A stretch of 64,000 nt of DNA from an uncultured Candidatus Peribacteria bacterium (GCA_964571725.1 CAZNDB010000003.1:127797-191796), one strand, 5' to 3'. Shown: positions 2,848 through 58,471, counted from the stretch's first letter. Numbers and translations are program-made. The notes: a model not told the origin generated them from the letters alone.

Positions 2848-2902
2848 AAAGTTTGTTCTAATTTCCCTTTGGGATTATATATGATACCTGAAACAACACC
2901 AC

Positions 2903-3598: not shown

Positions 3599-3651
3599 TA
3601 AAATCGGCCACTGATATTTTACCTGCAAAGACATCCTGGTTCTTCTTTTTT

Positions 3652-10948: not shown

Positions 10949-11673
10949 TTGTTGGGTATTAAGATATCACTCAATTTACTGCGTATATCTCTCGTATAAT
11001 CAACTCCTCTCACAATAACCACGGGTTTACCCTCAGCAGACTCGCCCATCAAAATAGAGGCAGCCGCAGCAACCCTGTCAACTATATTCATTAGCGGTTT
11101 TCCGATCTTCCCATAAAGATCCGGACCGGTCTTTTGCTCCAATCCTTTAATTCCGGAAAAACCAATCGCAGCACCGATAGAACCACCTCTATTGGCATTC
11201 CCCAGACTATCAGAAATGATTACGGAGACTTCTCTAACTTGAGATTCTATCCGTTTCCGGATTTTTTCCGCGCTTGCATCCGCATCCAATGGTAATAAAA
11301 CGACTCTTTGCCTATCTTCCTGATCAATATTAGACATGTCTATCCCTGCCGAAGTACAAACCATTCCGTTGTTGTGCTCTACTACAATTACCTTACCTTT
11401 TATATCAATAATTGATTTAGATTCCCTCAAAACCAGTTCACAGAACTCGGGAGATCTGCCGGTCTTTCTGGCCAATTCCAGAGCATATTCTGAAGGTATC
11501 ACTGTATCAAGCCAAATAAGTCTGTCCTCTGCCTTGGAAACAATCTTTTGCGCAATAACAATGATGTCCCTGTCTTGAATCGAATCAGCATAATCCATCA
11601 CCATCTCCCCCAAATCATCTCCAGGCTTTACCAGTGGAAAATTTGGTACCTCGATGACTTCTATTTTGGTCAT
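10945..11673 (-). CDS. CofE-like protein (coenzyme F420-0:L-glutamate ligase family fold)
   Basis: 242 aa. GDDLGEMV, IIVIAQKIVSKAEDR, VCTSAGIDMSN, VIISDSLGN..RGG and GESAEGKPVVIVRG match the CofE / FbiB N-terminal domain pattern. First gene of the overlapping operon. Confidence 0.7.
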   Translation of the reverse strand: MTKIEVIEVPNFPLVKPGDDLGEMVMDYADSIQDRDIIVIAQKIVSKAEDRLIWLDTVIPSEYALELARKTGRSPEFCELVLRESKSIIDIKGKVIVVEHNNGMVCTSAGIDMSNIDQEDRQRVVLLPLDADASAEKIRKRIESQVREVSVIISDSLGNANRGGSIGAAIGFSGIKGLEQKTGPDLYGKIGKPLMNIVDRVAAAASILMGESAEGKPVVIVRGVDYTRDIRSKLSDILIPNK

Positions 11674-18326: not shown

Positions 18327-19319
18327 ATGTCGCTTTTTGGCCGGAGGAAAGCAAAAAGTCTCTTTACCAAGCCCCCCCGCCGGCAGGAAATAAAAAGCCG
18401 CCGCAGGGTCTTTGGCAAAGCCTCCATTTCCCAGACCTCCAATCCCTATGTCACTGCCAAAAATCTCCGCGCCCCCATCAAACTGCGCAAAAAAATCCGC
18501 CGCACCTCCAAGGCCAATATTGCGCTCCCGCCCAACCGCCTGACCCATCAAAAATCCTCAAAACTCAGAAAAATACTGATTATTCTGCTGATTATATTTA
18601 CCCTGGGAGGACTGACCTATTTCACGTTTTTTACCGACTATTTCCAGATTGAGGGGTTTCAGATCTATGAAGAAGGAACCGAAATCACCACCAATTTGAA
18701 ATTAAACGAAATCGCCACCGCCATACTGTCCAACCAGAATATCCTGCTTTTCGACGAAAATATTCTGTCTGCGGAAATGCTCAAGGAAAACCCCGAATAC
18801 AGAAGCGTCAAAATCAAAAAGATCCTGCCCAAAAACATCGAAATTGAACTGGAAAAATTTCCGGTCACGGCCAACATCATCGATATTATCGACGGCGTCG
18901 ACGGCATCAAAGTCCAGAAAAAATATCTGGTCAACAGCAACGGCATGATTATCATGGAAAACGAGGAAAACCCCGATCTGCCCTATATCCGCGTAAGTAC
19001 CAAACAGGCCCTGGGCATCAACGCCTTTCCCCTGGATCAGGAAAAACTGGATTACATTATCAAACTGGTCAATCTCTTTGAGGAAAAATTCGGCATCAAG
19101 GTTGTGGAAGCCGTCTATCTGAAACAGGCCCGGGAAATCCACCTGAAAACCGAAAAAGGTTTTGACGTTTGGTTTGATTCTACCAAGACCATCATTTCAC
19201 AAATTGACAAGCTAAAAAGAGCACTGCCCAAACTGGATATTTACAAGACTCCCCTGGAATATATAGACTTGAGAATAACGGGTACCAATGCTGAAAAAGT
19301 ACTGTACAAACGTCGCTAA
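18327..19319 (+). CDS. ftsQ: cell division protein FtsQ/DivIB-like (POTRA)
   Basis: 330 aa. Basic N-terminus, a single TM (ILIILLIIFTLGGLTYFTFF), then YFQIEGFQIYEEGTE (POTRA start) and an FtsQ-type C-terminal domain. A DUF1290 gene follows, as in Firmicutes. Confidence 0.65.
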   Translation: MSLFGRRKAKSLFTKPPRRQEIKSRRRVFGKASISQTSNPYVTAKNLRAPIKLRKKIRRTSKANIALPPNRLTHQKSSKLRKILIILLIIFTLGGLTYFTFFTDYFQIEGFQIYEEGTEITTNLKLNEIATAILSNQNILLFDENILSAEMLKENPEYRSVKIKKILPKNIEIELEKFPVTANIIDIIDGVDGIKVQKKYLVNSNGMIIMENEENPDLPYIRVSTKQALGINAFPLDQEKLDYIIKLVNLFEEKFGIKVVEAVYLKQAREIHLKTEKGFDVWFDSTKTIISQIDKLKRALPKLDIYKTPLEYIDLRITGTNAEKVLYKRR

Positions 19320-19349: not shown

Positions 19350-19709
19350 ATGACCTGGGCATTTCTCGGCATCTTGATCGGAGTAATCATCGGACTGGCA
19401 CTCAATTTTTCCATTCCGATCGAGCTCACCAAATATTCCGCGGTTATCATTATGGGTATTCTGGATGCCCTTTTCGGCGCTATCCGGGCCGAGGCTACCA
19501 ATGACCGCTTTGACGGAATCATTTTTATGACCGGTCTGGGGTTTAATATTGTTCTGTCCGTTCTGATAACCATTTTGGGCGATAAACTGGGCCTGGACCT
19601 CTATCTGGCTGCCGCTTTTGTCTTCACTTTCCGCATTTTTACCAATGTCGGAGCCACCCGCCGCTATCTGTTGGACCGTCTTCTGGCCAAGACCAAAAAG
19701 AACGCCTGA
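19350..19709 (+). CDS. small basic membrane protein (DUF1290 / Sbp-like)
   Basis: 119 aa. GILDALFGAIRA...FNIVLSVLITILGDKLGLDLYLAAAFVF matches DUF1290. Confidence 0.65.
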   Translation: MTWAFLGILIGVIIGLALNFSIPIELTKYSAVIIMGILDALFGAIRAEATNDRFDGIIFMTGLGFNIVLSVLITILGDKLGLDLYLAAAFVFTFRIFTNVGATRRYLLDRLLAKTKKNA

Positions 19710-19748: not shown

Positions 19749-19777
19749 TTGTTCGGAAGCCGTTTTTTTGCTATAAT
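19749..19777 (+). promoter_or_regulatory. extended -10 promoter (TTGTTC-17-TGcTATAAT) for the 188-aa/pilT/pilin operon
   Basis: Hexamers and spacing read directly; ATG at 19813. Confidence 0.55.
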
Positions 19778-19812
19778 TAAGTGAACAAAAAATAAAACTA
19801 AAACAAAAAAAC

Positions 19813-20379
19813 ATGTCCAAGTCTTCGAAAATTGCTTTAATCAGGGAAATTTTAGACAGTGCTGAGGCCTCGCTGCGCTCGGCCAAACAAATGCTGGCTG
19901 AAATGGCCGGGGAATCAGGTCAGAATCAGCTTGCCAAAATGGCCGAGAAAGTCGGCAGCCACAAACAGGTTGGCGAACAGCATATTATCGAGGGATCGTT
20001 TGACGGTCAAAATATGATCGGACCCGATGCCCGCGTTTATTCCGTTCCGGCCAATTATGCCTCCAAATCCAAGCTGGTCCCCGGAGACGTTTTAAAACTG
20101 ACTATTACCGAGGACGGAACCTTTCTGTACAAACAGATCGGCCCTATCGAAAGAAAAAAGCTGGTTGGAACGCTTACCTATGATGATGGCGTTTACCGCG
20201 TCATTGCCGGAGGGAAGTCCTACAAAGTATTGCTGGCTTCCGTAACCTATTTCAAAGCAGAGATCGGCGACCGGATCACTATAGTGGTTCCGGAAAGCAG
20301 CGACAGCGACTGGGCTGCTATTGAGAACGTTCTCCCCCGCTTCGAGGAAGGCATCAGTCCTGACGATTTCAAAATTTAA
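19813..20379 (+). CDS. hypothetical protein (188 aa), first gene of the pilT operon
   Basis: ORF with an N-terminal helix and a C-terminal half that looks beta-rich. No motif recognised. 42 nt upstream of pilT. Confidence 0.55.
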   Translation: MSKSSKIALIREILDSAEASLRSAKQMLAEMAGESGQNQLAKMAEKVGSHKQVGEQHIIEGSFDGQNMIGPDARVYSVPANYASKSKLVPGDVLKLTITEDGTFLYKQIGPIERKKLVGTLTYDDGVYRVIAGGKSYKVLLASVTYFKAEIGDRITIVVPESSDSDWAAIENVLPRFEEGISPDDFKI

Positions 20380-20421
20380 AAAATCCCCCGCCGGAAAACC
20401 GGCCAAAATAAAAATAAAATT

Positions 20422-21480
20422 ATGGCTCAATTAGACAAAATCTTCAAAACCGCTGTTCAGTACAAAGCTTCCGATGTCTATATCACCACAGGTACCAAGC
20501 CCATTCTGCGCATCAACGGTAATCTGATCTCCATCGAAGAACATCCGGTGCTGTCCAAAAAAATGGCTGAGGACTACCTTTCCGAAATTCTAAGCGACAA
20601 ACAAAAGGAAGAATTTTCCCGCACTCTCGATCTCGACTTCTCTCTGGAAGTACCCGGAGTTTCACGCTTCAGAGTAAATATGTTCGTCCAAAGAAAGGGA
20701 ATCGGAGCCTGTTTCCGCGTCATTCCGGAAAACGTCCACACCCTGGAAGAATTGGGACTCCCGGATAAATTAAAGGAAATTGCCGTCACCGACCTGGGTC
20801 TGGTCATCGTAACCGGTGCCACCGGTTCAGGTAAATCCACCACCCTGGCCGCCATGTTAAATGAGGTCAACTCCAAAGACGCGCGCCATATCATCACCAT
20901 TGAAGACCCCATTGAATACGTCCATGAAAACGTTAAATCCGTCATCGATCAACGTGAAGTCGGCACCCACACCCTGAGCTTTCAGAAAGCCCTGCGTTCC
21001 GCCCTGCGTGAAGATCCGGATGTAATTCTGGTTGGTGAAATGCGTGATCTGGAAACCATTGCACTGGCTCTTACCGCCGCTGAAACCGGTCACTTGGTGT
21101 TCGCCACTCTGCATACCAACGGAGCCGCCGCTTCCATCGACCGTATCATCGACGCCTTCCCGACCAATCAGCAAAATCAGATCAGAATGCAGCTGGCCGG
21201 TTCCCTGAAAGCCGTAGTCTGGCAGACACTGCTCAAAACCAAAGACGGCAACGGCCGCGTGGCCGGTCTGGAAATCATGATCAACAACAATGCCGTAGCC
21301 AACATGATCCGTAAAAACAAGACCCATCAGCTGAACTCCGCCATCGAAACCGGTTTCAAAGAAGGTATGCAAACCATGAAGAAGTCCATTACCGAGTTAT
21401 TGGAAGCCGGAATTATCAGCGAAGAAGTCGCCCTGGAAAATATTCCCGAAGACATTATCGATAACAATGCCAACGCTTAA
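20422..21480 (+). CDS. pilT: type IV pilus retraction ATPase PilT
   Basis: 352 aa. Walker A GATGSGKSTT, IITIEDPIEY (Asp box), ILVGEMRD (Walker B), GHLVFATLHT (His box), and AVANMIRKNKTHQL in the position of the PilT AIRNLIRE motif. Confidence 0.92.
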   Translation: MAQLDKIFKTAVQYKASDVYITTGTKPILRINGNLISIEEHPVLSKKMAEDYLSEILSDKQKEEFSRTLDLDFSLEVPGVSRFRVNMFVQRKGIGACFRVIPENVHTLEELGLPDKLKEIAVTDLGLVIVTGATGSGKSTTLAAMLNEVNSKDARHIITIEDPIEYVHENVKSVIDQREVGTHTLSFQKALRSALREDPDVILVGEMRDLETIALALTAAETGHLVFATLHTNGAAASIDRIIDAFPTNQQNQIRMQLAGSLKAVVWQTLLKTKDGNGRVAGLEIMINNNAVANMIRKNKTHQLNSAIETGFKEGMQTMKKSITELLEAGIISEEVALENIPEDIIDNNANA

Positions 21481-21937
21481 CATCACAAAATCCGCCGCTC
21501 TGATTTTGAAAACCCTGCTGGTCGGACTGTTGTTGTCGTTGAATATTGGACAAACCGCCTGGGCGCAGCTGGACCGAAGTCAATATAGCCAGATGAATGT
21601 CGGCCAGGTACTTTCCCTCAAAGAAAACACCGAGGGACAAACCGGGGCTGGCGTTACGCAAGGCAGCCAGGATCAGAGTTATCTGAAAAGCAGCAACCCC
21701 ACCGCCTCTTTCATCCTGCAGGCCATTAACATGGTCGCCCTGATGTCAGCCTCTTTAAGCTTTCTGGCCATAGTCGTCGCCGGTTTTATGATGATGACCT
21801 CTACTGGCAACGAAACACAAAGAAACCGGGGCATCGAAATATTAACAAAGGCCATAGTCGGGCTGGTAATTACTTTGAGCGCCTATTTCATCGTAGCTTT
21901 CGTCCAGAATTTACTTTTTGAAACCGCCGGAAAATAA
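21467..21937 (+). CDS. TrbC/VirB2-like pilin family protein, paralog 1 (putative)
   Basis: 156 aa. Signal peptide (…TAWA|Q), variable ectodomain, then a TM-loop-TM hairpin LSFLAIVVAGFMMMTSTGNETQRNRGIEILTKAIVGLVITLSAYFIV. The start overlaps the pilT stop by 14 nt. Confidence 0.65.
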   Translation: MPTLNITKSAALILKTLLVGLLLSLNIGQTAWAQLDRSQYSQMNVGQVLSLKENTEGQTGAGVTQGSQDQSYLKSSNPTASFILQAINMVALMSASLSFLAIVVAGFMMMTSTGNETQRNRGIEILTKAIVGLVITLSAYFIVAFVQNLLFETAGK

Positions 21938-22618
21938 ATGAAAAAATTTGTCACAAAAATCTTGTTACTCACTCTTGCCAGTATCATTACGATTTCAATC
22001 TCGCAAGTTTCATTTGCCTTAACGCAATTTCAGGTCTGCACTTTTGTAAACAACCAAAACAAATCCGTTGACGAAAAAGTACCGGTAGACGATAGAGAAT
22101 TTTCAGACAAAATGGTTGTGATTACCGAAGAAAGACTGGGTGCCCCCGACAACAAAAACACCTTCAACTGCTACCGGAAAATTGAATGTACCATTAAACC
22201 TTCAGACCCCGCTAAAGCAGGCGAGAATCTGATCCGCAAATGCTCTACAACCTTCACAACTTCTTCCCCTTCCGGATGTTCAAACAGCAAAGAAATTGCT
22301 GAAGTATTGGCAAAAACACCGGCCGAAAACGACACCTACACCATCTGCGAACCCATTATGGTCTATGTCTCCGGAGCCGGCACGGAATTACTGTACTACT
22401 ACATGGGACAAATCTATAAGTACATAGCCACACTGGGCGGCCTGATTGCCGTACTTGCTCTGATCATCGCGGGAATCATGCGTTCAACCGCCGGCGACAA
22501 CACCACCCAGATCACCGAAGCCAACAAAATCATTACCAAATCCATAACCGGACTGGTGGTGCTGTTCTTATCGGCCATCATTCTTTACACCATCAATCCG
22601 AACTTCTTTGTAATTTAG
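21938..22618 (+). CDS. TrbC/VirB2-like pilin family protein, paralog 2 (Cys-rich ectodomain)
   Basis: 226 aa. Signal peptide (…VSFA|L), ectodomain of about 120 aa with 6 Cys, and hairpin LIAVLALIIAGIMRSTAGDNTTQITEANKIITKSITGLVVLFLSAII. Starts at the base after the paralog 1 stop. Confidence 0.6.
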   Translation: MKKFVTKILLLTLASIITISISQVSFALTQFQVCTFVNNQNKSVDEKVPVDDREFSDKMVVITEERLGAPDNKNTFNCYRKIECTIKPSDPAKAGENLIRKCSTTFTTSSPSGCSNSKEIAEVLAKTPAENDTYTICEPIMVYVSGAGTELLYYYMGQIYKYIATLGGLIAVLALIIAGIMRSTAGDNTTQITEANKIITKSITGLVVLFLSAIILYTINPNFFVI

Positions 22619-22621
22619 CCA

Positions 22622-23044
22622 ATGAAAAAACTTGCCCCGAAAATCAGCTGTAAATATGCCAGACTGTTCCTGCTCGGACTATATCTGCTGATTTCTTTTG
22701 CCAGTGTCTCGCTGGCCCAGGGCACCATCACCCAACCGCCCATTATCCCGAGCGGTGGTACCAGCACCGAAAAACTTTATATACCTCACAACACCTCCCA
22801 GGAATCCAACAAAACCTATATGGAACAACGGCTTCTGCCGGGCATAGCCAGTTCAATTATCGGTATTACTGGAGCCCTGGCCCTGCTATTCACTATTATC
22901 AGCGGCATACAGCTTTTAACCGCTTACGGCAACACCGACGCCGCGGGAAAGGCCCAGAAAACGCTGACCTGGTCGCTGATCGGTTTATTGGTCGCTGGCC
23001 TTTCCTATGCCATCGTCAGAATTATTGCCTCAATAACGGTATAA
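22622..23044 (+). CDS. TrbC/VirB2-like pilin family protein, paralog 3
   Basis: 140 aa. Signal peptide (…VSLA|Q). Hairpin ALALLFTIISGIQLLTAYGNTDAAGKAQKTLTWSLIGLLVAGLSYAIV. Confidence 0.65.
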   Translation: MKKLAPKISCKYARLFLLGLYLLISFASVSLAQGTITQPPIIPSGGTSTEKLYIPHNTSQESNKTYMEQRLLPGIASSIIGITGALALLFTIISGIQLLTAYGNTDAAGKAQKTLTWSLIGLLVAGLSYAIVRIIASITV

Positions 23045-23045
23045 A

Positions 23046-23636
23046 ATGATTGGAACAAAAATCACAATCAGAAAAATCCTGGCTACCATTGCGCTTTTAT
23101 GGTTGATTGTTCCTGCTGTTTGTCTGGCTGATCCCACGGATCCGGCCGTCCCCGCCGGTTCAAGCGGAACAACGGGCAGCCAGGCCCCCGCCTCCCAGGA
23201 CGCCGGCGTATCCGCAGACGAATTGTTTCAACGCTTCACCTACACTACCGAAACAACCGGCACCAAACTGGACGCGGTCAACAATCTGCCTCAAAAAGAC
23301 TGGAAAGCTTCACTGACAAGCATAATCAAAATTCTGCTCAATATCAGCGGCGCACTGACACTGCTCTCCTTTACGGTGGGCGGAGTAATGATGATCGTTT
23401 CACAGGGCAACGGAGATCTGCTGGAGAAAGGAAAACGCATCACCTATTATTCAGTGGCTGGACTGGTTATCATTGCCGTATCCTATGCCGTGGTAATCGG
23501 CGTATCCGAACTGCAGATTTTCACGCCGGGAGCAGGAGGAGGAGGGCAACAGAGCGGTAGTTCAGCGCCGGCGGCGCCAGCGGCACCGGCTAACGGAGGT
23601 GGCACCGTACCAAGTCAGGCACCCTCCAAATTATAA
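23046..23636 (+). CDS. TrbC/VirB2-like pilin family protein, paralog 4 (with G/S/A/P tail ending VPSQAPSKL)
   Basis: 196 aa. Signal peptide (…VCLA|D). Hairpin ALTLLSFTVGGVMMIVSQGNGDLLEKGKRITYYSVAGLVIIAVSYAVV, then a low-complexity tail. Confidence 0.65.
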   Translation: MIGTKITIRKILATIALLWLIVPAVCLADPTDPAVPAGSSGTTGSQAPASQDAGVSADELFQRFTYTTETTGTKLDAVNNLPQKDWKASLTSIIKILLNISGALTLLSFTVGGVMMIVSQGNGDLLEKGKRITYYSVAGLVIIAVSYAVVIGVSELQIFTPGAGGGGQQSGSSAPAAPAAPANGGGTVPSQAPSKL

Positions 23637-23642
23637 ACAAAA

Positions 23643-24167
23643 ATGACTAAAAAAATCCCAAAATTAATCCTGGCAATATTGGCCCTCACTATCTGGACAG
23701 CCGGACTTGGCACCGCTATGGCCATACCTTTAGACAATCAGGATCTGATGACCCGGGTTGTTCTTGATCCCAATCTAAAACCGGATAATTCACCGGGAGT
23801 AATTATCGGAACGGAAACTCTCGCCAAATCAGGCGCGGAGGCGGCCTTTGGAAATTATGTATTACAAATTATCGCCGGTGGACTGATCACAGTTGCTGCC
23901 CCGGTTGCCATAATCATTATTGCAATTTCCGGTTTGATAGCAGTTGTTTCACATGGTGAACAGGCACTCATCGATAAAGCCAAGAAAACTTTAACCTGGG
24001 CCATCATAGGACTGATAGTAATTATATTTTCCTGGGTCATCGTGAAAGCTGTAATAAGTGTAGTGATCAGTGCCAACAGTAATCCGACCACCCAAACCGG
24101 TACACCTCCGTCAACTCAGGGAGCGGGTACTGGAAACGTGCCAAGTCAGGCCCCCTCTAATTTATAA
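23643..24167 (+). CDS. TrbC/VirB2-like pilin family protein, paralog 5 (tail ending VPSQAPSNL)
   Basis: 174 aa. Signal peptide (…TAMA|I). Hairpin VAIIIIAISGLIAVVSHGEQALIDKAKKTLTWAIIGLIVIIFSWVIV, then a T/P/G/S tail. Its stop overlaps the convergent metG stop region by 11 nt. Confidence 0.65.
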   Translation: MTKKIPKLILAILALTIWTAGLGTAMAIPLDNQDLMTRVVLDPNLKPDNSPGVIIGTETLAKSGAEAAFGNYVLQIIAGGLITVAAPVAIIIIAISGLIAVVSHGEQALIDKAKKTLTWAIIGLIVIIFSWVIVKAVISVVISANSNPTTQTGTPPSTQGAGTGNVPSQAPSNL

Positions 24168-25677
24168 CATTATTTAAATTCAATTTCGGAAACAGCACTC
24201 CGGCTTCGCCCAGTGAAGTGCCACTTTTCAGTAACCCGAAATCCTTTTTACCTATCCAGGAAAATCCGGCAACGGCAAACTCTGCATCATAGAGTTTCAG
24301 AATTTTTTCCGCAGAATCCGGAATAAAGGGCAGTAACATCAAGGCCAGTTGCCGTATTAATTCCAATAAATTGTACATAACGCCGGGAAGCCGGTCAGAA
24401 CTTTCTTTAGCCAAACCCCAGGGTTTGCTGTCCTCCACATATTTGTTGGCCGCGAAACCCAAATCCAAAATCACCTCTGCCGCCTTTTTGAGATCATATT
24501 CGGAAAAATGCTTTTCCAGATTCACCCAGGCCTGCCCCACCTTCACTTCAAATCCTTCATCAGCACCTTTTCCCGGGACTTTCCCGTCAAAATATTTCTT
24601 ATTCATGGCAAAAACCCGGCTGACCAGATTACCAAAGGTGTTGGCCAATTCATCGTTATAAACGATATCAAAGCGCTCCTGACTAAAATCCCCGTCATTC
24701 AAAGTCGGAATTTCTCTGAGCAAAAAATACCGCAAAGCGTCTCTGCCGTTCTTCTCCAGATATTCAAAAGGGTCCTTCACGTTGCCCAAAGACTTGCTCA
24801 TCTTCTGGCCCTCGGAAGTTATAAAACCGTGAACCATAATGGACTTGGGCAATTCAAACCCGGCCGACAACAGCATTCCCAGCCAAATCACGGCATGAAA
24901 ACGCAAAATATCTTTACCGATCACATGCACGTCCGCCGGCCAAAATTTATCCCGGTCAATTACCGAAATATAATTGGTCAGGGCATCGCACCACACATAC
25001 ATCAGCTGCGTATCGTCACCGGGAATCTCAATTCCCCATTTCACCGAATCCCGCGGACGGGAAAAACTGATATCCGTCACGCCCTCCTCAAAGAAACTCA
25101 ACACTTCATTTTTACGTGATTCCGGAACAACCTTAACTTCATCCGAAGCTATCTTGGCTTTGATTTGATCGGCATATTTGGACAGACGAAAAAAATAATT
25201 TTCCTCCGCCACTTTAATCGGCGGCTTTTTATGAATCGGACAATTGCCGTCCACCAGCTCTTTTTCCAGAATGTATTTTTCACAGCCCACACAATAAAGA
25301 CCGGTATAATTGGATTTATATAAATCCCCCGCCGCGTCCAGTTTCTTCCACATCTCCTGTACAAAAGCCACGTGTTTCTCATCCGTTGTACGAACAAAAT
25401 GATCATTGCTTACACCCATCTTTTCCGCCAGATCCTGAAACAGGGCAGACACTTCATTGGCCAGTTCCTGCGGCCAGACTCCCCTTTGCTCGGCCACCTG
25501 GGCGATTTTCAAGCCGTGCTCGTCCGTACCGGTCATAAAAAACACGTCTCTGCCCTCCAAACGGTTATAGCGGGCCAGTGCATCAGCTTGCAACAACTCC
25601 ATGGCGTAACCCACATGGGGACCGGCGTTCACATAAGCAATCGAAGTGGTAACATAAAATTTATTGGCTTTGGACAT
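24157..25677 (-). CDS. metG: methionine--tRNA ligase
   Basis: 506 aa. YVNAGPHVGYAMELLQADALARY (HIGH-type region), CVGCEKY...CPIHKK zinc knuckle, KMSKSLGN. Confidence 0.95.
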   Translation of the reverse strand: MSKANKFYVTTSIAYVNAGPHVGYAMELLQADALARYNRLEGRDVFFMTGTDEHGLKIAQVAEQRGVWPQELANEVSALFQDLAEKMGVSNDHFVRTTDEKHVAFVQEMWKKLDAAGDLYKSNYTGLYCVGCEKYILEKELVDGNCPIHKKPPIKVAEENYFFRLSKYADQIKAKIASDEVKVVPESRKNEVLSFFEEGVTDISFSRPRDSVKWGIEIPGDDTQLMYVWCDALTNYISVIDRDKFWPADVHVIGKDILRFHAVIWLGMLLSAGFELPKSIMVHGFITSEGQKMSKSLGNVKDPFEYLEKNGRDALRYFLLREIPTLNDGDFSQERFDIVYNDELANTFGNLVSRVFAMNKKYFDGKVPGKGADEGFEVKVGQAWVNLEKHFSEYDLKKAAEVILDLGFAANKYVEDSKPWGLAKESSDRLPGVMYNLLELIRQLALMLLPFIPDSAEKILKLYDAEFAVAGFSWIGKKDFGLLKSGTSLGEAGVLFPKLNLNNVIN

Positions 25678-25753: not shown

Positions 25754-28700
25754 CTATTTGGCAGGAGCGGTTTGAGAACTGGCAGAGGACACTGTATCCT
25801 TTGGTTGATCGGTTCCATACAGTACTTTCTGATTGTTATAAAAATACCGCATTTGGTCCTGCGTGACAGATCCTTGCTTCAAGGCAGCAATGAAACTTTC
25901 TACAGTCATCCCTTGAGGCGGTACCAAAATATTTTTTATTTCTGGAAATTTATTGATCGTATCAGCAATTGTCCTCTGACCTGCTGAACCAACATTATAA
26001 TTGGATTCTACAATCAAGACACCAATTTTTCTGCCAGCTTCTCTGGCGGCATCAGTTCCTTCCCGTTCTCTGGTCATTACCGGCACAGCTTCCGGAACAT
26101 TGCCTATTGTGGCCGGAGCTTTAGGCGCCTGGGCTGGGGGAACCTGTGCTGGAGCCGCTTGGGGTTTTACCGAAACACCAGCCAGATAACCGGGCTCGTT
26201 ATTAACGGCCATATTGATCAGGGTTGAAACGGCATTTTTTTCAGCGTTCATGGCCATATGTCTGTTTCCCCCCTCCACAAAATTGTTCCAACCCGGTGCG
26301 ACAGATATTTCCATCCCCTGTGATGTTTTATAAAAATTCAGGGTCAGGGGTTTTTCGTTACCAGGCATTCCAGCCCGGACATTGAAACTGACTGAGTTTT
26401 CCGATACCGAGGAATTTCCTTCAATTCTTGACAAGAATAATTTACTCGTATCAAAATTTTCAGTTTGATTAATCTTGTTTAACGCAGCTAAAGGCAACTC
26501 TTTCCAGTTTGGAGAGTTGGCAAATTCTTTAAAAGTTGGATAAGGTTTTGTCTTTGCCTCCTGATATTCCTTTTGGGCTGCTGCTTGAGTCTCCTGATCC
26601 TTTTTATAACGGGGATATTCTTTCTTATTTTTCTTATTTTTCTCATTTTCCTGATATTCCTTATAAAAGGTCTTGGGGTATTTGATGACTTTAATTAAAG
26701 CCTCCTGAAAACGACGGTCATAGGTCTGCAAAGGCTCCGTGCTTTTCATCGCGCCAAGTTTAGTCTGAACCGCTTTCAAAGCTTCCTCCATTCCGGCGGC
26801 ATAAGCCTTTTGGGCTTCGACAAAATCTCCATAACCCATTGTATTCCAACCCGCTTCCGTCTGATCTGCGTTCAACAGAACTCCAACAAAAGCCCGCGTA
26901 CTGGGCAGATTTTTTAAGATATTCTTACCGTCCTTCTCCATTGGTAACTTTTCGTTATCATTGACCACGCTATCAAAGTTTTTTCTGAACGGAGTCCCGG
27001 CAATAATTTTCCTGACCCGTGATTGGTACGAAGAACTCTCGGTATTTTCCCCGTCTTTGGGTTTCAATTCCGCAATGGGAAGTTTTGAGATCAACTCCCA
27101 CATCTGCTTAATATAATATAACACTTTTACTTTTTCACCAGTCCCTGCCGGAGTACTATCCCCCACTTCTTTGGCCAGTAAATATTTTCTTACCCTTTCA
27201 TAATTTTCCAGTTTTGGAACGCCCTTTAAAACATTATCAACAGCTGCAATTTTTATTTTGTTGTCATTGGGCACTTCTGTCGGTTCCTTGTCATCATGCA
27301 AAACATTAATCTTCGGTTTCGGTTCCTCCGGAGGTTTCGGCTGTTCCTTACCAGGTTCCACAGTAGCCGGTTGTTCTTTTGGGGGTTCCAATCCCTGCGG
27401 TTTGACTATGAAATAGCCCTCATTTCTGGCCCGGCGAAACTCCTGTAAATTCGGTTCCGTCGGTGTACCCAAATTAAACATTCTGGCGGACATTCCATCG
27501 ATCGAAAGATAAGCAAGTCCATCCGGCGACATCGAAGTTATGCGTACATTATCAGGCCTTTCAAACGTACCGCCGAATGTGGCGGAATGCTTGGCGTTAA
27601 AATTATCCAGCATTTTACCAAGTCCTTGTTCAGATACCTTCTCTCCCCCCTTGGTAGTCATCTGTTCCTTCTGTACAGCCAGCAAGCTTAAAGCCTTATT
27701 AACTGCCATTCCTGGTTCTCCGTGAAAAGTCCCCAATTGTTGCCCGAGGGGAATCAGATTAAACTTAAAATCTCCATTACCGTTATGAATTATTTGCAGG
27801 CTCTGAGGCGGATCAAGTTTCTGCATCCAGTCAATCACCAGGATATGCCCCTTGTCTCCGGATTCCTGTACTTTACCGTTTGCGGCTTCCATATTGCGCA
27901 TAGATCTGATATTCAATACCTCTCCGGCATTCAGACTTCGCGCCATTGATTGAATCAATTTCAATCCTTTTTCTGGCCCCTTTTCAGTTCCCATTTCTTC
28001 AAAAAACCTTCTTTCCATTTCCGCCTGCTCATCGCGGGGATCTCTGTCATCCGGATGTTCCGCCCTATCCTGTAATTGTTTTAGAGTTCTCATCATATCC
28101 GAAAAACCACCTGCCCTAAAACGGTATTCACCTTGGCGATTAACACTGCTATGTACAACCCTGACATCTAGTTCGCCATGCAGCAATGACTTAATATTAA
28201 CGCGCGGATCTTTGGACAGCCCCACAGCCCAGTCAAATTCATATTGTACTCCTCCGTCTTTATCTTCGGGACCATTATCAACAGTCAATCCCCAGGCCTC
28301 AAAATTCGACTTATCTCTGACGGTCTTACTTTGAGCTTCCTGTAAGATAGACCCGTCATTTAATCTGGCCGCATAATACTTTTGCGCTTCCTGTAATCCG
28401 GCTTTTCCTTCAGCTTTAGGGTTATAGTCCGACAGAATTTTCCCGGAATCCATCCGCAAATAATAATCACCACTCTTACCTTTATAGAAATCACAGGCGA
28501 TTGCTCCATCACCAAGGGGAACATTTACCTTCACCGGAGGCCCGTCATTATATTGCAATATTTGCTGCAAAGCTGGCAAATACCGTTTATCCACCTCCGC
28601 AACATCTTTTTTATTTAATAATTTTGCCACCTCCTGTTCAGTCCCGTCTAGGGCCGTTGATTTGGGTTCTTTATCGGCCTTTTCCTGTGCAGCCTTGGCA

Positions 28701-29872
28701 ACCGCTTCCTTCCCTTTCTCCTGAGCCCGGACCGAAAGATTATCATGGGCATAGGCCAAATGTTGCCCGCCATTGGCTTCCGGACCGTATAACACTTTCA
28801 ATGGATTACTGCTTGGCGCTTTCCCGCCTTCTTTCAAAAACACAAACACACCGTTTTCTATTCTCACATTGGTGTAGCCTTGTCCGGTTAGTTTGTTGAT
28901 AAAATTAGTGTATTTTTCTGCCGGTGATTTATTGGACGGATCATCGGCATTTATATAACTTTGCAAAGCCGTTTCCATTTCAGCCGCAGTAATTGGTTTG
29001 CCCTTATCCCTGGTTATTGAAGCTTCTAGAGATTTAACCAAGTCCGACAGACTCACGCTGGGATCAAGTTTTGGCGCATTATTCCCGCTCACCTTCTCCA
29101 GATTCTCCGGTTTGGTGCGCTCCCGGTTGGCAGCCTCCTGTTTGGCCTTGGCTTCACTGTCTTTTTTCTCGGCCTGACGGCGATTCATATAATTCTTGGA
29201 TTCCTCACTGGTGGCTGTCATTTGTATCGGAGAAGATATCAGTTTTTTTTCTTTATCAAAAAACCGCCATTTCCCGTTTTCAATCGCGAATGAAGCAATT
29301 TTGTTGTCCTTCAGCCACCGGTTTATCTCAGTATTCCGTGCCGCCTGTTTTTCTCCTGCAGTCTTTTTCCCATTATCTATTGCACCAATTTTATCCGCGC
29401 TACTAGCCCTTTCCAGAATTCCTGTCATCATATCATCCACCATCCTTTCAATCGTAAACTTATTATCGGTTTTTTGAATTTCCTGCACGGCATTTTTAAT
29501 ATCGGCATTGCCCTTCAGAGTATTTCTCAAACTGACCGCATCGGGCCGGGGCTTCATATCAATATGTTTGTCCGTACCGGTCTTCAGCTGATCATATTGT
29601 TTTTCAATATTGTTCAATCTCTCTCCTGCCTGTTTGTCCCGCTCGGCTTTTTCCTGGGCATCTTTGGCCTCCTTGGCCTTTTTGGCCGCGTCGTCAGAAT
29701 CCGCAGCAGTATCTGGCTTGTTCACATCAAAAACCATTCTCTTCTGCAGAAAAATCCATTTTTCCGGATTCTGTTTAGGAATAAATGTTGTCATTGTCTT
29801 GAATATTATTATTTTCTTTGTTTTTGTTGGACATCTGATCGATGATTCTCTGCCTGGCCAACTTGGCGTCAT
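25754..29872 (-). CDS. giant orphan protein (1372 aa as drawn), last gene of the pilin operon
   Basis: Uninterrupted 4.1-kb ORF with no signal peptide, TM helix or enzyme motif. It has K/E-rich and P/A/Q-rich linkers and an internal repeat (FAIENGKWRFFDKEKKLISSP versus VRIENGVFVFLKEGGKAPSSNP). The start is uncertain: ATGs at 29872, 29794 (MTTFIPK) and 29737 (MVFDV). Confidence 0.8.
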   Translation of the reverse strand: MTPSWPGRESSIRCPTKTKKIIIFKTMTTFIPKQNPEKWIFLQKRMVFDVNKPDTAADSDDAAKKAKEAKDAQEKAERDKQAGERLNNIEKQYDQLKTGTDKHIDMKPRPDAVSLRNTLKGNADIKNAVQEIQKTDNKFTIERMVDDMMTGILERASSADKIGAIDNGKKTAGEKQAARNTEINRWLKDNKIASFAIENGKWRFFDKEKKLISSPIQMTATSEESKNYMNRRQAEKKDSEAKAKQEAANRERTKPENLEKVSGNNAPKLDPSVSLSDLVKSLEASITRDKGKPITAAEMETALQSYINADDPSNKSPAEKYTNFINKLTGQGYTNVRIENGVFVFLKEGGKAPSSNPLKVLYGPEANGGQHLAYAHDNLSVRAQEKGKEAVAKAAQEKADKEPKSTALDGTEQEVAKLLNKKDVAEVDKRYLPALQQILQYNDGPPVKVNVPLGDGAIACDFYKGKSGDYYLRMDSGKILSDYNPKAEGKAGLQEAQKYYAARLNDGSILQEAQSKTVRDKSNFEAWGLTVDNGPEDKDGGVQYEFDWAVGLSKDPRVNIKSLLHGELDVRVVHSSVNRQGEYRFRAGGFSDMMRTLKQLQDRAEHPDDRDPRDEQAEMERRFFEEMGTEKGPEKGLKLIQSMARSLNAGEVLNIRSMRNMEAANGKVQESGDKGHILVIDWMQKLDPPQSLQIIHNGNGDFKFNLIPLGQQLGTFHGEPGMAVNKALSLLAVQKEQMTTKGGEKVSEQGLGKMLDNFNAKHSATFGGTFERPDNVRITSMSPDGLAYLSIDGMSARMFNLGTPTEPNLQEFRRARNEGYFIVKPQGLEPPKEQPATVEPGKEQPKPPEEPKPKINVLHDDKEPTEVPNDNKIKIAAVDNVLKGVPKLENYERVRKYLLAKEVGDSTPAGTGEKVKVLYYIKQMWELISKLPIAELKPKDGENTESSSYQSRVRKIIAGTPFRKNFDSVVNDNEKLPMEKDGKNILKNLPSTRAFVGVLLNADQTEAGWNTMGYGDFVEAQKAYAAGMEEALKAVQTKLGAMKSTEPLQTYDRRFQEALIKVIKYPKTFYKEYQENEKNKKNKKEYPRYKKDQETQAAAQKEYQEAKTKPYPTFKEFANSPNWKELPLAALNKINQTENFDTSKLFLSRIEGNSSVSENSVSFNVRAGMPGNEKPLTLNFYKTSQGMEISVAPGWNNFVEGGNRHMAMNAEKNAVSTLINMAVNNEPGYLAGVSVKPQAAPAQVPPAQAPKAPATIGNVPEAVPVMTREREGTDAAREAGRKIGVLIVESNYNVGSAGQRTIADTINKFPEIKNILVPPQGMTVESFIAALKQGSVTQDQMRYFYNNQKVLYGTDQPKDTVSSASSQTAPAK

Positions 29873-30314
29873 ACTTGACCCGCCCTCTTTCCACCTCCCG
29901 AAACCTCATCACCCGCGGGGCTATCGGGAATTCCAGCGGAACGGTTTTCAGGGCTAATTTTTCCTCGCCCCGGTAAAAATCAACCTCACCGCCCACGATC
30001 CCAATATAATTGGCTCCCTCGGCAATTTTCTGCATCCAGACATCCTCAATCTTCTGTCCGGCCTGCAAATATTTCTCCAGAGAAGCCATCGCTTTTCCCG
30101 GCAAATCGGGATCATAAGGTTTCACGTTGTCTCGAAGCAGTTCCAAAGTTTTATCAATATCAGCGGAAATCGGACAGCCACCGTTAAATTTTTTCCCCGC
30201 ATCTTCCTGCTCCGCAAACTTTTGCAGGCGCAGGTCCAGCGGAGGTCTGCCGGTATTCGCACCGTCATCCCTGACCGGTTCCGCATCCAAATTGTGGGTC
30301 ATATCATTTACCAT
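29775..30314 (-). CDS. hypothetical protein (179 aa, no signal peptide)
   Basis: ORF whose ATG overlaps the stop of the PilX-like gene by 4 nt and whose stop overlaps the giant ORF. No recognisable motif. Confidence 0.6.
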   Translation of the reverse strand: MVNDMTHNLDAEPVRDDGANTGRPPLDLRLQKFAEQEDAGKKFNGGCPISADIDKTLELLRDNVKPYDPDLPGKAMASLEKYLQAGQKIEDVWMQKIAEGANYIGIVGGEVDFYRGEEKLALKTVPLEFPIAPRVMRFREVERGRVKYDAKLARQRIIDQMSNKNKENNNIQDNDNIYS

Positions 30315-30316
30315 GA

Positions 30317-31660
30317 CTACTGATTATTTGTGTTTACTGTTTCCGCTTCATTGCGGGTCCTATATAAAGAAAAATTGAACACCGGTAAAAATCCCGGAGC
30401 TTTGTATCTGACATCCAGGCTCTTGGTCACAGTACCGGCGGCTGAAAATCCCCGGCTGCTGATCTCGGCAAAATCTTTGACCAGTTTGGGAGCCTCCTGA
30501 CCCGCAGACCCGGCCTCAGCTTGCGTATCACGCCTGGCCAGTACGCGGTAATAGATATCAGCCCGGGCCAGCTGGCTGGGATCCTTCAGATTGGCAATTC
30601 CGGCCACGTTGGGATTAACCATGTTGGTCAGAATCAGATAATTCTCTTTGTGATTATCAATAAAGTCGCGCATCTGACAGCCGGTCGCATCGCCTATGGT
30701 GGTTCCCTTGATCAAAGCCCCGCCGGTTACGGCCACTCCGGCATCGGTCTGATAACACTCACGGGCAGCGGACCAGAGAGTCACATCACTCAAATCGGTA
30801 TTTTCACCAAGCTTGGGAGGTTTCGGACTTAAACTGGGAAACACGCAGGTTTCAGCCTTTGCCCCGCTTACCGCCCGTATATTGGCATCAGTACCGATAC
30901 AAACAGGACGGTCTGGACTGTTGTTGGTAACCCCGGGATAAAAATCGGCAATAGATTCCGTTCTCTGTACCCCGCTGTCAACCAGGGGCTTACCGTAAAT
31001 TTTCCAGCGCAACACATCAAACTCTTCCAGTTTCATTCCCTGCAAGGGACCGTATAAATCACTGCCGTCCCTCAAATTCAAATAATATTCAATCAAAAAA
31101 TCATTTACCGAAACAGTCGAATCGCCATCATCCTCCGCGCTGTACAACGGAATGATATGGGTCTCGTTCAATCCCAGTTTTCTGTAGGTGGCTTTGGGAC
31201 AATCTTCGTATACCTGCTGTCTGGAATAGGCTATCGCCATCGGATTGCGGGCGTTACTGATCTGACAATCCGCGTTTATCTGCCCGCCGTCCACTCCGGC
31301 CACCCTGTCCACAAAAATCGGCTGACCCTGGGGAAATCCGGGAATGGAGTCAGTGCGGTTACTGGTGGAATAACCGTAGGAAAAAGACGGATCAATCTCA
31401 TCATTCGGGTCCGCCGCCAATTCGCCCCGCGGTTCTTTACCCGGTAAACTGTCGGAAAGCGCCAGCAAAGCATCCTCTACTCCGGCTTCCGCGGCATAAT
31501 AGGCCTTATTGGCATCCACAATCGACTGGGTAACCCGAATTTCTTTGAGCACCAACGTGCTTATACCCAAAGTCATGGTCATTAAAACACCTAACATCAA
31601 TAAAGTGATCAGCAGAGCCGAGCCTTTTTTCAACACCGGATTTTGATGCGGTTTAATCAT
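30317..31660 (-). CDS. PilX-like type IV minor pilin / pilus assembly protein
   Basis: 447 aa. The N-terminus KKGSALLITLLMLGVLMTMTLGISTLVL is the PilX-N type hydrophobic segment and lacks Glu5. Large variable globular domain. Confidence 0.65.
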   Translation of the reverse strand: MIKPHQNPVLKKGSALLITLLMLGVLMTMTLGISTLVLKEIRVTQSIVDANKAYYAAEAGVEDALLALSDSLPGKEPRGELAADPNDEIDPSFSYGYSTSNRTDSIPGFPQGQPIFVDRVAGVDGGQINADCQISNARNPMAIAYSRQQVYEDCPKATYRKLGLNETHIIPLYSAEDDGDSTVSVNDFLIEYYLNLRDGSDLYGPLQGMKLEEFDVLRWKIYGKPLVDSGVQRTESIADFYPGVTNNSPDRPVCIGTDANIRAVSGAKAETCVFPSLSPKPPKLGENTDLSDVTLWSAARECYQTDAGVAVTGGALIKGTTIGDATGCQMRDFIDNHKENYLILTNMVNPNVAGIANLKDPSQLARADIYYRVLARRDTQAEAGSAGQEAPKLVKDFAEISSRGFSAAGTVTKSLDVRYKAPGFLPVFNFSLYRTRNEAETVNTNNQ

Positions 31661-32346
31661 TAATTTCTGGCGGTGATTAAGGTCTGATATTTCAAATCAA
31701 ATTTAACCGTGTCCAATTTCGATCCCACGTCCAGATACATTCTCACCATCGGTTGCAGCTGGGTGGCCAGATCTTTTGCCGAACCGGCACCCTGGGGATC
31801 TTTCTGGGGCAATATTTCAAAACGCACGTCGTTCACTTTCAGATTGGAGAAAGCAAATTCTTTGTAATCTCCGCAACCGTTTCCTTCACCCTCCGTTGCA
31901 GCATTCTCATAACCGCTTTCCAGCTGCCACGAACCGTTCAGACTCCTGTATCTCTTCAGACAGACTTTCTGCGTCACCGGATCAAATTTAATAATGCTGC
32001 TGGTTAAACCGTCCCGGGAAATGGTGCGAAGATTATCACCGGAACTAACCGTCAGAAGAGCGGAATCGTAACATCTCACCAGTGACATCTGATTGAAAAC
32101 GATGTTTTCCCCGAAATCCTGGTTATAACAAAAATAATCCACGGTTCCTTCGCGCATTTCATTGTTCACGTAATCCACAAAATTGCGCAGTTCGGAATAA
32201 ATCTGTCTGGTTTCATTGGCCGACTTCTGAGCCCGTATCACCTGCAGATAAGCGTCAACGGCAACCACCATAAACCCCATGAAGATAGCAATTGCAATCA
32301 GCAATTCGATCAGGGTGAAACCTTTTTGTCTTTTGGGGTTTTTCAT
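31660..32346 (-). CDS. prepilin-type N-terminal cleavage/methylation domain protein (minor pilin)
   Basis: 228 aa. MKNPKRQKG|FTLIELLIAIAIF is a canonical class III signal. Confidence 0.85.
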   Translation of the reverse strand: MKNPKRQKGFTLIELLIAIAIFMGFMVVAVDAYLQVIRAQKSANETRQIYSELRNFVDYVNNEMREGTVDYFCYNQDFGENIVFNQMSLVRCYDSALLTVSSGDNLRTISRDGLTSSIIKFDPVTQKVCLKRYRSLNGSWQLESGYENAATEGEGNGCGDYKEFAFSNLKVNDVRFEILPQKDPQGAGSAKDLATQLQPMVRMYLDVGSKLDTVKFDLKYQTLITARN

Positions 32347-33077
32347 TATCTCCAGTCAGTTAAATTGGTGGTCAGAACAACTTTTCTGGGTATTCCGTTT
32401 ATCCCCTCCCAGGTAACAATCGAATTTATCCGGAGAGAATTAATCTCTCCCTTATCGGATAGAACAGGTTGAATGCGAATCATTCTGTGAAAGGCAGTGG
32501 CCTGAGCGGAAGAAGGAATCTCCGTATAATTATCGGTTTGAAAATATCTAAACCTGCTTTGAATCTGAGCATCGGCGCCGGCTTCGCCCTGATCAAGATA
32601 AACCAAGGTGGAATCGGATTTTGACAGATCCTGCCAGGTGGCCTGTTCCAGTTTGACCAGACTGACCGGCAGACAAAGCTTCAGATTTAATTTATCGCAG
32701 CTCAAAGACGGATTCTCAAAAGTAACCAGTTTGAAAAAAGACTCTCCGTTCAAAACGTTGTCTTCATAAAGTTTTTCGCCCCAGAAAGAGAACTGGTCAA
32801 CGGAATTTTTTTTGGCACCGTCAAAACCAAGTCCCAGATAGACGTTGGAATCGCGTATAAACCTGACTGCTTCCAACCCTTCCTGGGCCAGGCCGTTGGC
32901 AATCAGACTGCTGACATTATCCGAATTGGTTCTCATCACCACGCTGAGAATGCTGACCGCGCTGGTAATCACCATGGCCAAAACGCTAAAAGAGATTATT
33001 ACCTCCGGCAACGTAAAAGCCATCTGGCGGAGAGAGTTTTTTACAATTTCTGATTGTCGTTTTTCTGCAGTCATCAA
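32346..33077 (-). CDS. minor pilin-like protein with non-canonical class III signal
   Basis: 243 aa. ...LRQMA|FTLPEVIISFSVLAMV has Ala rather than Gly at position -1, with Glu5 retained (PilV/GspI-like). Confidence 0.65.
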   Translation of the reverse strand: MMTAEKRQSEIVKNSLRQMAFTLPEVIISFSVLAMVITSAVSILSVVMRTNSDNVSSLIANGLAQEGLEAVRFIRDSNVYLGLGFDGAKKNSVDQFSFWGEKLYEDNVLNGESFFKLVTFENPSLSCDKLNLKLCLPVSLVKLEQATWQDLSKSDSTLVYLDQGEAGADAQIQSRFRYFQTDNYTEIPSSAQATAFHRMIRIQPVLSDKGEINSLRINSIVTWEGINGIPRKVVLTTNLTDWR

Positions 33078-33097
33078 AAATTCTAATTTATCCCTTA

Positions 33098-33106
33098 ATT
33101 ATACCA
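33098..33106 (-). promoter_or_regulatory. extended -10 element TGGTATAAT (minus strand) upstream of the minor-pilin genes
   Basis: The reverse complement of 33098-33106 reads TGGTATAAT, located just after the major-pilin terminator. Confidence 0.4.
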
Positions 33107-33131
33107 AAAAAACAGCTTTTTTAAAAGCCGT
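33105..33131 (-). terminator. rho-independent terminator after the major pilin gene
   Basis: Minus strand ACGGCTTTT-AA-AAAAGCTGT (one mismatch) followed by TTTTTTT. Confidence 0.5.
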
Positions 33132-33158
33132 ATCCTCCCTCTTTTGACCTAAAATCAG

Positions 33159-33776
33159 TTAGATTCTTCTGACCGCTCCCGTAGACAAATCAAATTCCAC
33201 TTGTCTGTCCAGATCCGGCGAATCCACGTCACCCACTTTGAAAGTCACAATTTGGCTTACCGGTCTGACCAAACTATCCTGCTGCAGCTCCAGAATTTGT
33301 CCAAAAGGAGGTTTAAAATAATAGGTATTTTCCGTTCCCTCACCAATTAAAATCACTTTTCCGGTAAAAACTTCGGATTTTCTCCAGTTTTCTGCGCCGG
33401 GAACCCTTTGACAACTGTCCACAACGCCGTTTTCGCCCTCCGCGACGTAATTGGTCTGGGCAGTAAATAATCCGGCTTTGGTTTCGTCCGTACCGGTAAC
33501 AATTTTAACCGCGTAACACTGCAAAACCGATTTATCGGGTTCCGTACTGGTACTTTCCTGCCGCACTACATTGCCGCTTCTGGCCAACACCTGCACTTCC
33601 CGCAAAGTGGAGACCAGCGTATCGGTGGCAAATTCCACCCGGGCCTGTCTTTCCACGGCGGCATAATTGGCAACGGCGATCACCGTCATCAGGGCAATGA
33701 TACAAATAACAATCAGCAGTTCTATTAAAGTAAACCCTTTCTTCTGACCGGATATTTGTTCGGACCTCTGTTTCAT
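33159..33776 (-). CDS. type IV pilin (probable major pilin)
   Basis: 205 aa. MKQRSEQISGQKKG|FTLIELLIVICIIALMTVIAVANY is a canonical type IVa signal. Two Cys in the globular domain. A terminator follows the gene. Confidence 0.85.
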   Translation of the reverse strand: MKQRSEQISGQKKGFTLIELLIVICIIALMTVIAVANYAAVERQARVEFATDTLVSTLREVQVLARSGNVVRQESTSTEPDKSVLQCYAVKIVTGTDETKAGLFTAQTNYVAEGENGVVDSCQRVPGAENWRKSEVFTGKVILIGEGTENTYYFKPPFGQILELQQDSLVRPVSQIVTFKVGDVDSPDLDRQVEFDLSTGAVRRI

Positions 33777-33780
33777 GAAA

Positions 33781-34971: not shown

Positions 34972-34989
34972 TATGATAAGTTTAGCGGT

Positions 34990-35532: not shown

Positions 35533-35538
35533 ATTTAA

Positions 35539-58468: not shown

Positions 58469-58471
58469 TAT

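Follow-up and report, generated by a model that had tools for sequence, protein, structure and literature searches.

A conserved array of five putative VirB2-like pilin genes directly downstream of pilT in Candidatus Peribacteria

The DNA analyzed here is a stretch of 64,000 nucleotides from an uncultured Candidatus Peribacteria bacterium (GCA_964571725.1 CAZNDB010000003.1:127797-191796), and this whole stretch will be called the window. Between positions 19749 and 24167 the window carries seven genes which are read in the same direction: a gene for a 188-aa protein (orph188), the gene pilT for the retraction ATPase of the type IVa pilus, and a tandem array of five small pilin-like paralogs, p1 to p5. 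All features are collected in Table 1. A first-pass annotation, made by a model from the sequence, had proposed this gene map with spacings from pilT to p5 of -14, 0, 3, 1 and 6 nt, and the list of open reading frames (ORFs) reproduces it exactly; the overlap between the stop of pilT and the start of p1 is thus real. Upstream of the seven genes there is a promoter-like site (19749-19777) with an extended -10 element. A scan for consensus promoters left this site out, its score being below the threshold with a -35 element that matches at 3 of 6 positions, and from its sequence we consider it a plausible candidate promoter. A Shine-Dalgarno-like purine-rich motif was found in front of none of the seven genes (25 nt before each start, 19788-23642). 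The seven starts are preceded by A-rich leaders, and such leaders without a Shine-Dalgarno motif suggest that initiation of translation is independent of this motif in the lineage.

The PilT protein is canonical, as the first-pass annotation had it. It matches the Pfam family T2SSE with an E-value of 1.4e-50 and the NCBIfam family TIGR01420 (pilT_fam) with 469 bits, the cutoff being 319, and its translation contains the Walker A motif GATGSGKST, a GEMRD box and the motif AVANMIRKNKTHQ, which is AIRNLIRE-like. That it could be a VirB11 or a TrbB in disguise is ruled out by the NCBIfam scores, which fall short in both families (63.6 bits against a cutoff of 250 for VirB11, 64.1 against 304.6 for TrbB). 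The protein is 48-55% identical to its matches in genomes of many phyla outside the Candidate Phyla Radiation (CPR), and among species-representative genomes the closest loci are in two "Candidatus Peribacteria" metagenome-assembled genomes (MAGs) with 69-70% identity.

A PilT at this place had been regarded as out of context. This is at variance with the content of the region just past the metG gene, where genes for PilC, PilO, a PilN-like protein and at least four pilin-like proteins of a type IV pilus (T4P) are found. The cluster covers 30317-36210 on the minus strand, which is 6 kb downstream of the array and within about 15 kb of pilT. Two of its pilins have the KGFTLIELLI N-terminus, and their E-values for N_methyl are 2.6e-08 and 7.9e-06. 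The Pfam scan covered 56 long ORFs of the window, and among the ORFs scanned there was no match to PilB, PilM or a prepilin peptidase. It is because its own T4P machinery adjoins, beyond metG, that pilT is present at the locus.

The five paralogs were compared with the Pfam family PF18895 (T4SS_pilin), which has a gathering score of 26.6 bits. Four of the five are above it (p1 26.8, p2 34.5, p3 31.4 and p5 28.7 bits). The remaining one, p4, reaches only 12.5 bits, which is below the gathering score; it aligns with the other paralogs at the hairpin motif and has their invariant G...GL columns. We count p4 in the family because these hairpin columns are common to all and because it has positional orthologues in related genomes. 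A hidden Markov model built from the family recovers exactly five ORFs in the window, and these are p1 to p5. The paralogs are far apart from each other, p1 being 15-24% identical to the other four. No N_methyl match (PF07963; the G|FTLIE class III motif) was obtained with Pfam for any of the five, as had been noticed from the sequence, and none of them has a pilin globular domain. On these sequence comparisons the five proteins are assigned to the VirB2-like T4SS_pilin family and not to the type IV pilins.

The topology which the first-pass annotation had described, a signal followed by a transmembrane hairpin with a polar loop, was found in all five. A hydropathy scan of 15 proteins gives for each of p1 to p5 an N-terminal hydrophobic signal-like segment with an AxA-like motif at its end and, in the C-terminal part, two hydrophobic helices with a short polar loop between them; Sec cleavage of the signals is likely from the motif. 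The AlphaFold2 model of p3 agrees with this. It has a signal helix at residues 10-29 and a hairpin formed by residues 63-100 and 105-139, and the block means of pLDDT (predicted local distance difference test) are 89-97 across residues 71-130.

The relationship to the pilins of conjugation systems is less direct. The name TrbC/VirB2-like, which had been given to the five proteins, is borne out by PF18895, in which four of five pass, and finds no counterpart, by sequence profile, in PF04956 or in any conjugative pilin of solved structure. No match to PF04956 was seen at E<=1 for any of p1 to p5, and matches to both PF18895 and PF04956 (TrbC) occur in several distant homologues only. A sub-threshold match connects p2 with T4SS_CagC (E=0.051), and NF045849, which describes a pilin-like protein of an integrative and conjugative element of Mycoplasma, gives 22.8 bits for p3 and 23.2 bits for p5, both under the cutoff. 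The direct evidence that they are homologous to classical VirB2/TrbC is thus weak; they resemble VirB2 in topology and, elsewhere in the phylum, in genomic association.

The constrained part of the family is the Gly-rich hairpin with its Lys-containing polar loop. The ectodomains are variable and comprise 40-130 aa. The longest is that of p2; it contains Cys and comprises about 130 aa, and a LYTINPNFF motif is conserved at the C-terminus of this protein. The proteins p4 and p5 carry C-terminal tails rich in Gly, Pro, Ser, Ala and Thr with near-identical endings (GGTVPSQAPSKL and GTGNVPSQAPSNL). In two related loci (L002 and L003) the p5 orthologues have no tail of this type, and in the p4 orthologues it is missing or considerably shorter. 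Their likeness could be due to a recent gene conversion, or it could reflect a shared signal for modification or anchoring.

A scan of metagenomes with the p2 alignment, via its motif, gave 80 loci. Wherever the contig was long enough, the same order of genes was found by tblastn: FtsQ, DUF1290, the 188-aa protein, PilT, p1 to p5, metG on the opposite strand, T4P pilins, PilC, PilO and the PilN-like protein. The metG gene comes after p5 in every related locus which is long enough, in one of them (L158) about 4 kb further off. Two loci which were reached independently via the 188-aa protein (L167 and L168) have the same block, which extends upstream to MgtC in both of them and in one also includes BipA and MscS, as in the window.

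The distance from pilT to the array was determined in the 56 loci containing both the 3' end of pilT and a downstream pilin. In all 56 pilT is located upstream of the array on the same strand. The distance from the pilT stop to the first pilin start is at most 20 nt in 35 loci, 21-150 nt in 4, 151-500 nt in 6 and more than 500 nt in 11. The long gaps which were inspected hold inserts of different kinds, most of them on the opposite strand; a Na/Ca-exchanger-like gene, a gene for an RlmI-like methyltransferase and a tRNA-like sequence are among them. As the inserts part pilT from p1, the array would have a promoter of its own in the long-gap genomes. The expectation that the linkage of pilT and array would be conserved in relatives holds for the gene order, and the function which the linkage was taken to imply is not supported by it: linkage alone cannot be read as functional coupling, because FtsQ, DUF1290, MgtC and metG are kept equally well.

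It should be mentioned that the junction of pilT and p1 is a recurrent site of insertion (L002 at 1532-3307, and L089, L090, L103, L112, L130, L131, L145, L152, L167 and L168). Between the gene for the 188-aa protein and pilT many loci likewise have about 1.8 kb inserted, and in L003 this insert consists of a 195-aa ORF and Dus.

The paralogs are maintained individually. In the two Peribacteria MAGs the five are found in the same order, and 30 of 30 best cross-genome matches are between positional orthologues; by locus, positional orthologues are present in L002, L003, L167 and L168, and L167 and L168 likewise correspond one-to-one. A recent repertoire for antigenic variation is ruled out, as all best cross-genome matches are positional orthologues. 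The rate of divergence was estimated from the median identity of proteins in the related loci to the protein of the window. These medians are 69% for PilT, 62% for the 188-aa protein, 54% for PilC, 52% for the methionyl-tRNA synthetase (MetRS), 33-38% for p1 to p5 and 29-31% for the minor pilins of the T4P. Even in the closest locus (L082), in which PilT is 91% identical, the identities are 55% for p1, 48% for p2 and 41% for p3. The five proteins are old, individually retained and fast-evolving. What is new here is the fixed one-to-one orthology of all five across the clade at a rate of evolution as high as that of the T4P minor pilins, together with the conserved context of the array, which is embedded among T4P genes and adjacent to pilT. 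Fast evolution combined with orthology would be more in keeping with surface-exposed subunits that have five distinct roles than with a recent antigenic repertoire.

Tandem arrays of PF18895/VirB2-like genes have been published (PMC12102498, PMC10633639, PMC12857230), and the array can therefore not be called undescribed, as had been suggested. In a survey of 3,035 genomes by means of PF18895 and PF04956, Quinonero-Coronel et al. (2025) reported 441 Patescibacterial arrays with 2-11 VirB2-like genes each, which are on average about 25% identical; VirB4 was found in 2,417 of the 3,035 assemblies, and in 1,135 of the 1,948 assemblies having both, the pilin genes were near virB4, about 40% being apart (PMC12102498). 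In Gracilibacteria the VirB3 and TrsD genes were mostly away from virB4, T4SS (type IV secretion system) genes were scattered, and VirB6 was absent or undetectable (PMC12102498). In Southlakia epibionticum the series of pilin genes inside the T4SS locus is essential (Wang et al., 2023, PMC10633639). A review from 2025 restates that the array is essential and treats a pilus as a possibility only (PMC12857230). PilT is mentioned neither in PMC12102498 nor in PMC10633639.

The search for T4SS genes in the window agrees with what had been claimed, namely that VirB4, VirB6 and VirD4 are missing from the 64 kb: these families and VirB11 have no match among the 56 long ORFs. Outside the clade the family is found in other surroundings. 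In one locus (L166) a seven-gene array abuts TrbL_3 (VirB6-like), PrgI, a TraC-like protein and a VirB4-type ATPase; in another (L162) an eight-gene array is accompanied by large unannotated proteins and DUF5657; in a third (L164) a lone gene of the family is present. T2SSE/PilT was found near none of these three. None of the paralogs of the window can be paired one-to-one with a gene of the L166 or L162 array, and tblastn with the VirB4, TraC-like, PrgI and TrbL_3 proteins of L166 gave no match in the window or in any related locus.

In each of the arrays examined one member stands out by a much larger ectodomain and has a total length of 226-238 aa (L166 9305-10000, L162 7382-8098, window 21938-22618). 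This member is Cys-rich in the window and in L166, and it is encoded by the first gene in L166 and L162 and by the second in the clade studied here. Judged from its sequence it may be an adhesin-like or tip-like subunit.

A 668-aa protein of the window (55829-57835, minus strand) was considered as a divergent VirB4 and rejected, as no Walker A motif was seen, no P-loop family was matched and a membrane segment is present. It has no Pfam match; on visual inspection the N-terminal domain resembles PP2C/SpoIIE, and the C-terminus, which is rich in repeats, resembles a propeller. Over the C-terminus an identity of 29% (E=1e-17) is seen with a 641-aa protein of L162, an otherwise unrelated Patescibacterial locus, where its gene (1966-3891) is beside DUF5657 and the eight-gene PF18895 array.

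The Peribacteria are presumably to be placed in the class Gracilibacteria sensu GTDB. The explanation which we prefer, and hold to be fairly probable, is that the locus is a lineage-specific copy of the Patescibacterial VirB2-like array, which probably serves a VirB4-type system encoded elsewhere, and that the adjacency to pilT is ancestral synteny. The five paralogs would be exported by Sec and their signal peptides removed. The mature proteins would remain embedded in the membrane as hairpins of two helices, and the variable N-terminal ectodomains would be outside the cell, as would the C-terminal tails of p4 and p5. By analogy with Southlakia epibionticum, the array would be used by a Gram-positive-like T4SS of the VirB4 type, and its products, possibly after polymerization, would be building blocks or decoration of a surface structure which makes contact with a host cell. 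The pilT gene, for its part, would serve the ordinary T4P whose genes are found just past metG. A distant T4SS partner fits because a scattered layout of T4SS genes has been reported for Gracilibacteria (PMC12102498), and surface exposure fits because the identity of the five pilin-like proteins is 33-38% as against 69% for PilT, with the T4P minor pilins at 29-31%. The overlap of pilT and p1 would most likely reflect co-expression of two host-contact appendages in an ancestral, slowly rearranging block. It does not need a shared machine, and a functional link between PilT and the pilins is required by nothing examined here.

Several results speak against this explanation. VirB4, VirB6, PrgI and TrsD are found neither in the 64-kb window nor within 10 kb of the array in the related loci, so that the T4SS partner is assumed, not seen. 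When the profile of the family was compared with PDB sequences, no VirB2, TraA or TrbC was retrieved, the only matches being a Flp pilin (E=0.32) and PSI-F (E=1.2). The hairpin of the p3 model would be compatible with a conjugative pilin; in Foldseek it gave a best E-value of 0.34 with generic helical hairpins as top matches and no pilin among the top 50, and such matches do not distinguish pilins from hairpins of other kinds. In no Patescibacterium has a pilus composed of these proteins been observed so far (PMC12857230). Finally, gaps of at most 20 nt in 35 of 56 loci, together with an invariant order, are tighter than mere neighbourhood would lead one to expect.

Some of these results would also be accounted for if the five proteins were membrane-anchored surface proteins, adhesins or organizers of the envelope, which are independent of T4SS and T4P alike, "T4SS_pilin" being a family label only. 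We regard this as unlikely. The variable ectodomains are long compared with classical VirB2, p2 has its Cys domain, no solved conjugative pilin was matched in sequence and the match of the fold was non-specific; further, a lone member exists (L164), as does an array without recognizable T4SS neighbours (L162), and the missing observation of a pilus in Patescibacteria (PMC12857230) points in the same direction. However, members of the family are near virB4 in 1,135 assemblies (PMC12102498), the Southlakia array is essential and situated within a T4SS locus (PMC10633639), and the array in L166 abuts VirB6, PrgI and VirB4. The constrained Gly-rich hairpin with its Lys loop is also what would be expected of an interface for packing or assembly.

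A coupling of the array to the T4P is less likely still. The hairpin proteins would in this case have been recruited as membrane partners of PilT and PilC, or would form a filament whose extraction and return depend on PilT, that is, a hybrid of a T4P and a T4SS pilin. Stated as a history, a VirB2-like set would have become detached from VirB4 in Peribacteria/Gracilibacteria and been put under the T4P, and PilT (with PilC) would handle the five hairpin subunits or be co-regulated with them in a fixed ratio; this version appears to us just as doubtful. Its attraction is the position of pilT, which is directly upstream on the same strand in every locus counted, with codons that overlap or nearly touch in 35, and it is strengthened by T4P genes on both sides of the array, by the lack of any T4SS gene in the window or the related loci, by the fixed set of five orthologues, which recalls sets of minor pilins, and by the reported absence or undetectability of VirB6 in Gracilibacteria (PMC12102498). 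Against this stand the unrelated FtsQ, DUF1290, MgtC and metG genes, which are kept in the same block, and the 11 of 56 loci with gaps above 500 nt, which contain opposite-strand or tRNA-like inserts where they were inspected. Co-transcription is therefore dispensable. Outside the clade the family occurs with VirB4, VirB6 and PrgI, or alone, and never with PilT. We know of no precedent for a PilT which acts on Sec-type pilins with two transmembrane helices. The interpretation of the locus as a new hybrid system is thus weakly supported.

The 188-aa protein had been considered an orphan. No Pfam or NCBIfam match was obtained, and a database search gave at least 7,934 homologues; among the matches listed they are 62-95% identical, and several are from genomes named Peregrinibacteria/Gracilibacteria. 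The AlphaFold2 model, with a mean pLDDT of 78, has an N-terminal helix followed by two beta-barrels, and in Foldseek the barrels match, weakly, the OB folds of RNase R, SSB, RsgA, Rho and Mpa (best E 3.5e-3). With these homologues and a predicted tandem OB-like fold the protein is no orphan, and it is probably a conserved, cytoplasmic protein without an evident role in pili. The helix with two OB-like barrels loosely resembles the coiled-coil/OB collar of the Mpa/PAN ATPases; the gene is usually located directly upstream of pilT, a gene for a hexameric ATPase. In related loci it comes after FtsQ-DUF1290.

Table 1. Features of the window referred to in the text, with positions counted from its first nucleotide.
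Feature	Position	Strand	Basis or remark
FtsQ	18327-19319		upstream of array
DUF1290/Sbp protein	19350-19709		upstream of array
promoter-like site, TTGTTC-17 nt-TATAAT, TGn extended -10	19749-19777	+	sequence reading
188-aa protein gene (orph188)	19813-20379	+	ORF list
pilT, type IVa pilus retraction ATPase, 352 aa	20422-21480	+	ORF list; T2SSE/TIGR01420
p1, pilin-like paralog, 156 aa	21467-21937	+	start overlaps pilT end by 14 nt; PF18895
p2, pilin-like paralog, 226 aa	21938-22618	+	PF18895
p3, pilin-like paralog, 140 aa	22622-23044	+	PF18895
p4, pilin-like paralog, 196 aa	23046-23636	+	hairpin columns; positional orthologues
p5, pilin-like paralog, 174 aa	23643-24167	+	PF18895; 3' end overlaps convergent metG by 11 nt
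metG, methionyl-tRNA synthetase	24157-25677	-	tRNA-synt_1g 4.8e-101; synteny control
GspK/PilX-like minor pilin, 447 aa	30317-31660	-	weak GspK match (NCBIfam)
pilin, 228 aa (QKGFTLIELLIA)	31660-32346	-	KGFTLIELLI N-terminus; N_methyl
ComGE-like, 243 aa	32346-33077	-	weak ComGE match (NCBIfam)
pilin, 205 aa (KKGFTLIELLIV)	33159-33776	-	KGFTLIELLI N-terminus; N_methyl
PilC platform protein	33781-34971	-	T2SSF 8.2e-46
PilO	34990-35532	-	Pfam PilO 1.1e-08
PilN-like, 223-aa bitopic protein	35539-36210	-	T4P cluster

Some other genes of the window should be mentioned. At the distal end of the T4P string are found a 1,372-aa Lys/Ala/Glu-rich protein (25754-29872, minus strand) and a 179-aa protein (29775-30314, minus strand); neither has a Pfam match, and tblastn gave no counterpart of them in the related loci, unlike the adjoining pilin genes. 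The protein encoded at 48126-50615 is a true FtsK and has a gamma domain. Further along (58130-61338) come rnpA, yidC and a jag/KhpB-like gene, and then a gene for a protein with three SLH domains and a DPBB lytic-transglycosylase-like domain. The genes rnpA, yidC and jag are markers which are often near the replication origin, and T4SS genes are often near the origin in Patescibacteria (PMC12102498). At 9740-11673 (minus strand) a gene for an archaeal-type S-adenosylmethionine synthetase (PF01941, 1.1e-87) adjoins a gene of the F420-0:gamma-glutamyl ligase family (PF01996, 2.9e-59), a pair which is unexpected for a reduced CPR genome.

Few sets of genes have been shown to be indispensable to cultivated Patescibacteria in their epibiotic life, and VirB2-like arrays are among these. 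Here a second deep lineage keeps such an array as five ancient, fast-evolving orthologues beside pilT and the T4P genes and not beside VirB4. If the genomes of the clade lack VirB4, the locus is a natural test case for whether "pilins" of this kind need a T4SS; if they have VirB4, it is a well-conserved case of the scattered T4SS organization reported for Gracilibacteria.

Among known systems the Patescibacterial arrays, such as the six-gene array of Southlakia epibionticum ML1 and the "Sec-secreted array" of Nanosynbacter lyticus TM7x (PMC10633639, PMC12102498), are closest, as family, topology and phylum are the same. Both here and there the paralogs are tandem and diverged, with 15-24% identity to p1 in the window and a published mean of about 25%. 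The window array differs from them in being outside a T4SS locus, directly 3' of pilT and near a T4P cluster, and in its constant number of five paralogs, each with one-to-one orthologues throughout a deep clade. With VirB2, TrbC and TraA the five proteins have in common a signal peptide, two hydrophobic helices, a short polar loop and a small conserved core, and weak cross-matches exist (CagC at E=0.051 and PF04956 in some homologues). However, they have much longer N-terminal ectodomains, their host is a monoderm according to the literature, and no VirB5, VirB6 or VirB11 is nearby. Compared with a T4P retraction module, pilT is canonical and PilC, PilO and G|FTLIE pilins are near, whereas p1 to p5 are not T4P pilins. 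The amplified virB2 genes of Bartonella and Anaplasma (cited in PMC12102498) are also tandem divergent copies, and these are thought to vary the exposed surface. In contrast, the copies in the window are ancient position-specific orthologues and not recent variants, which points to five roles and not to a switching repertoire.

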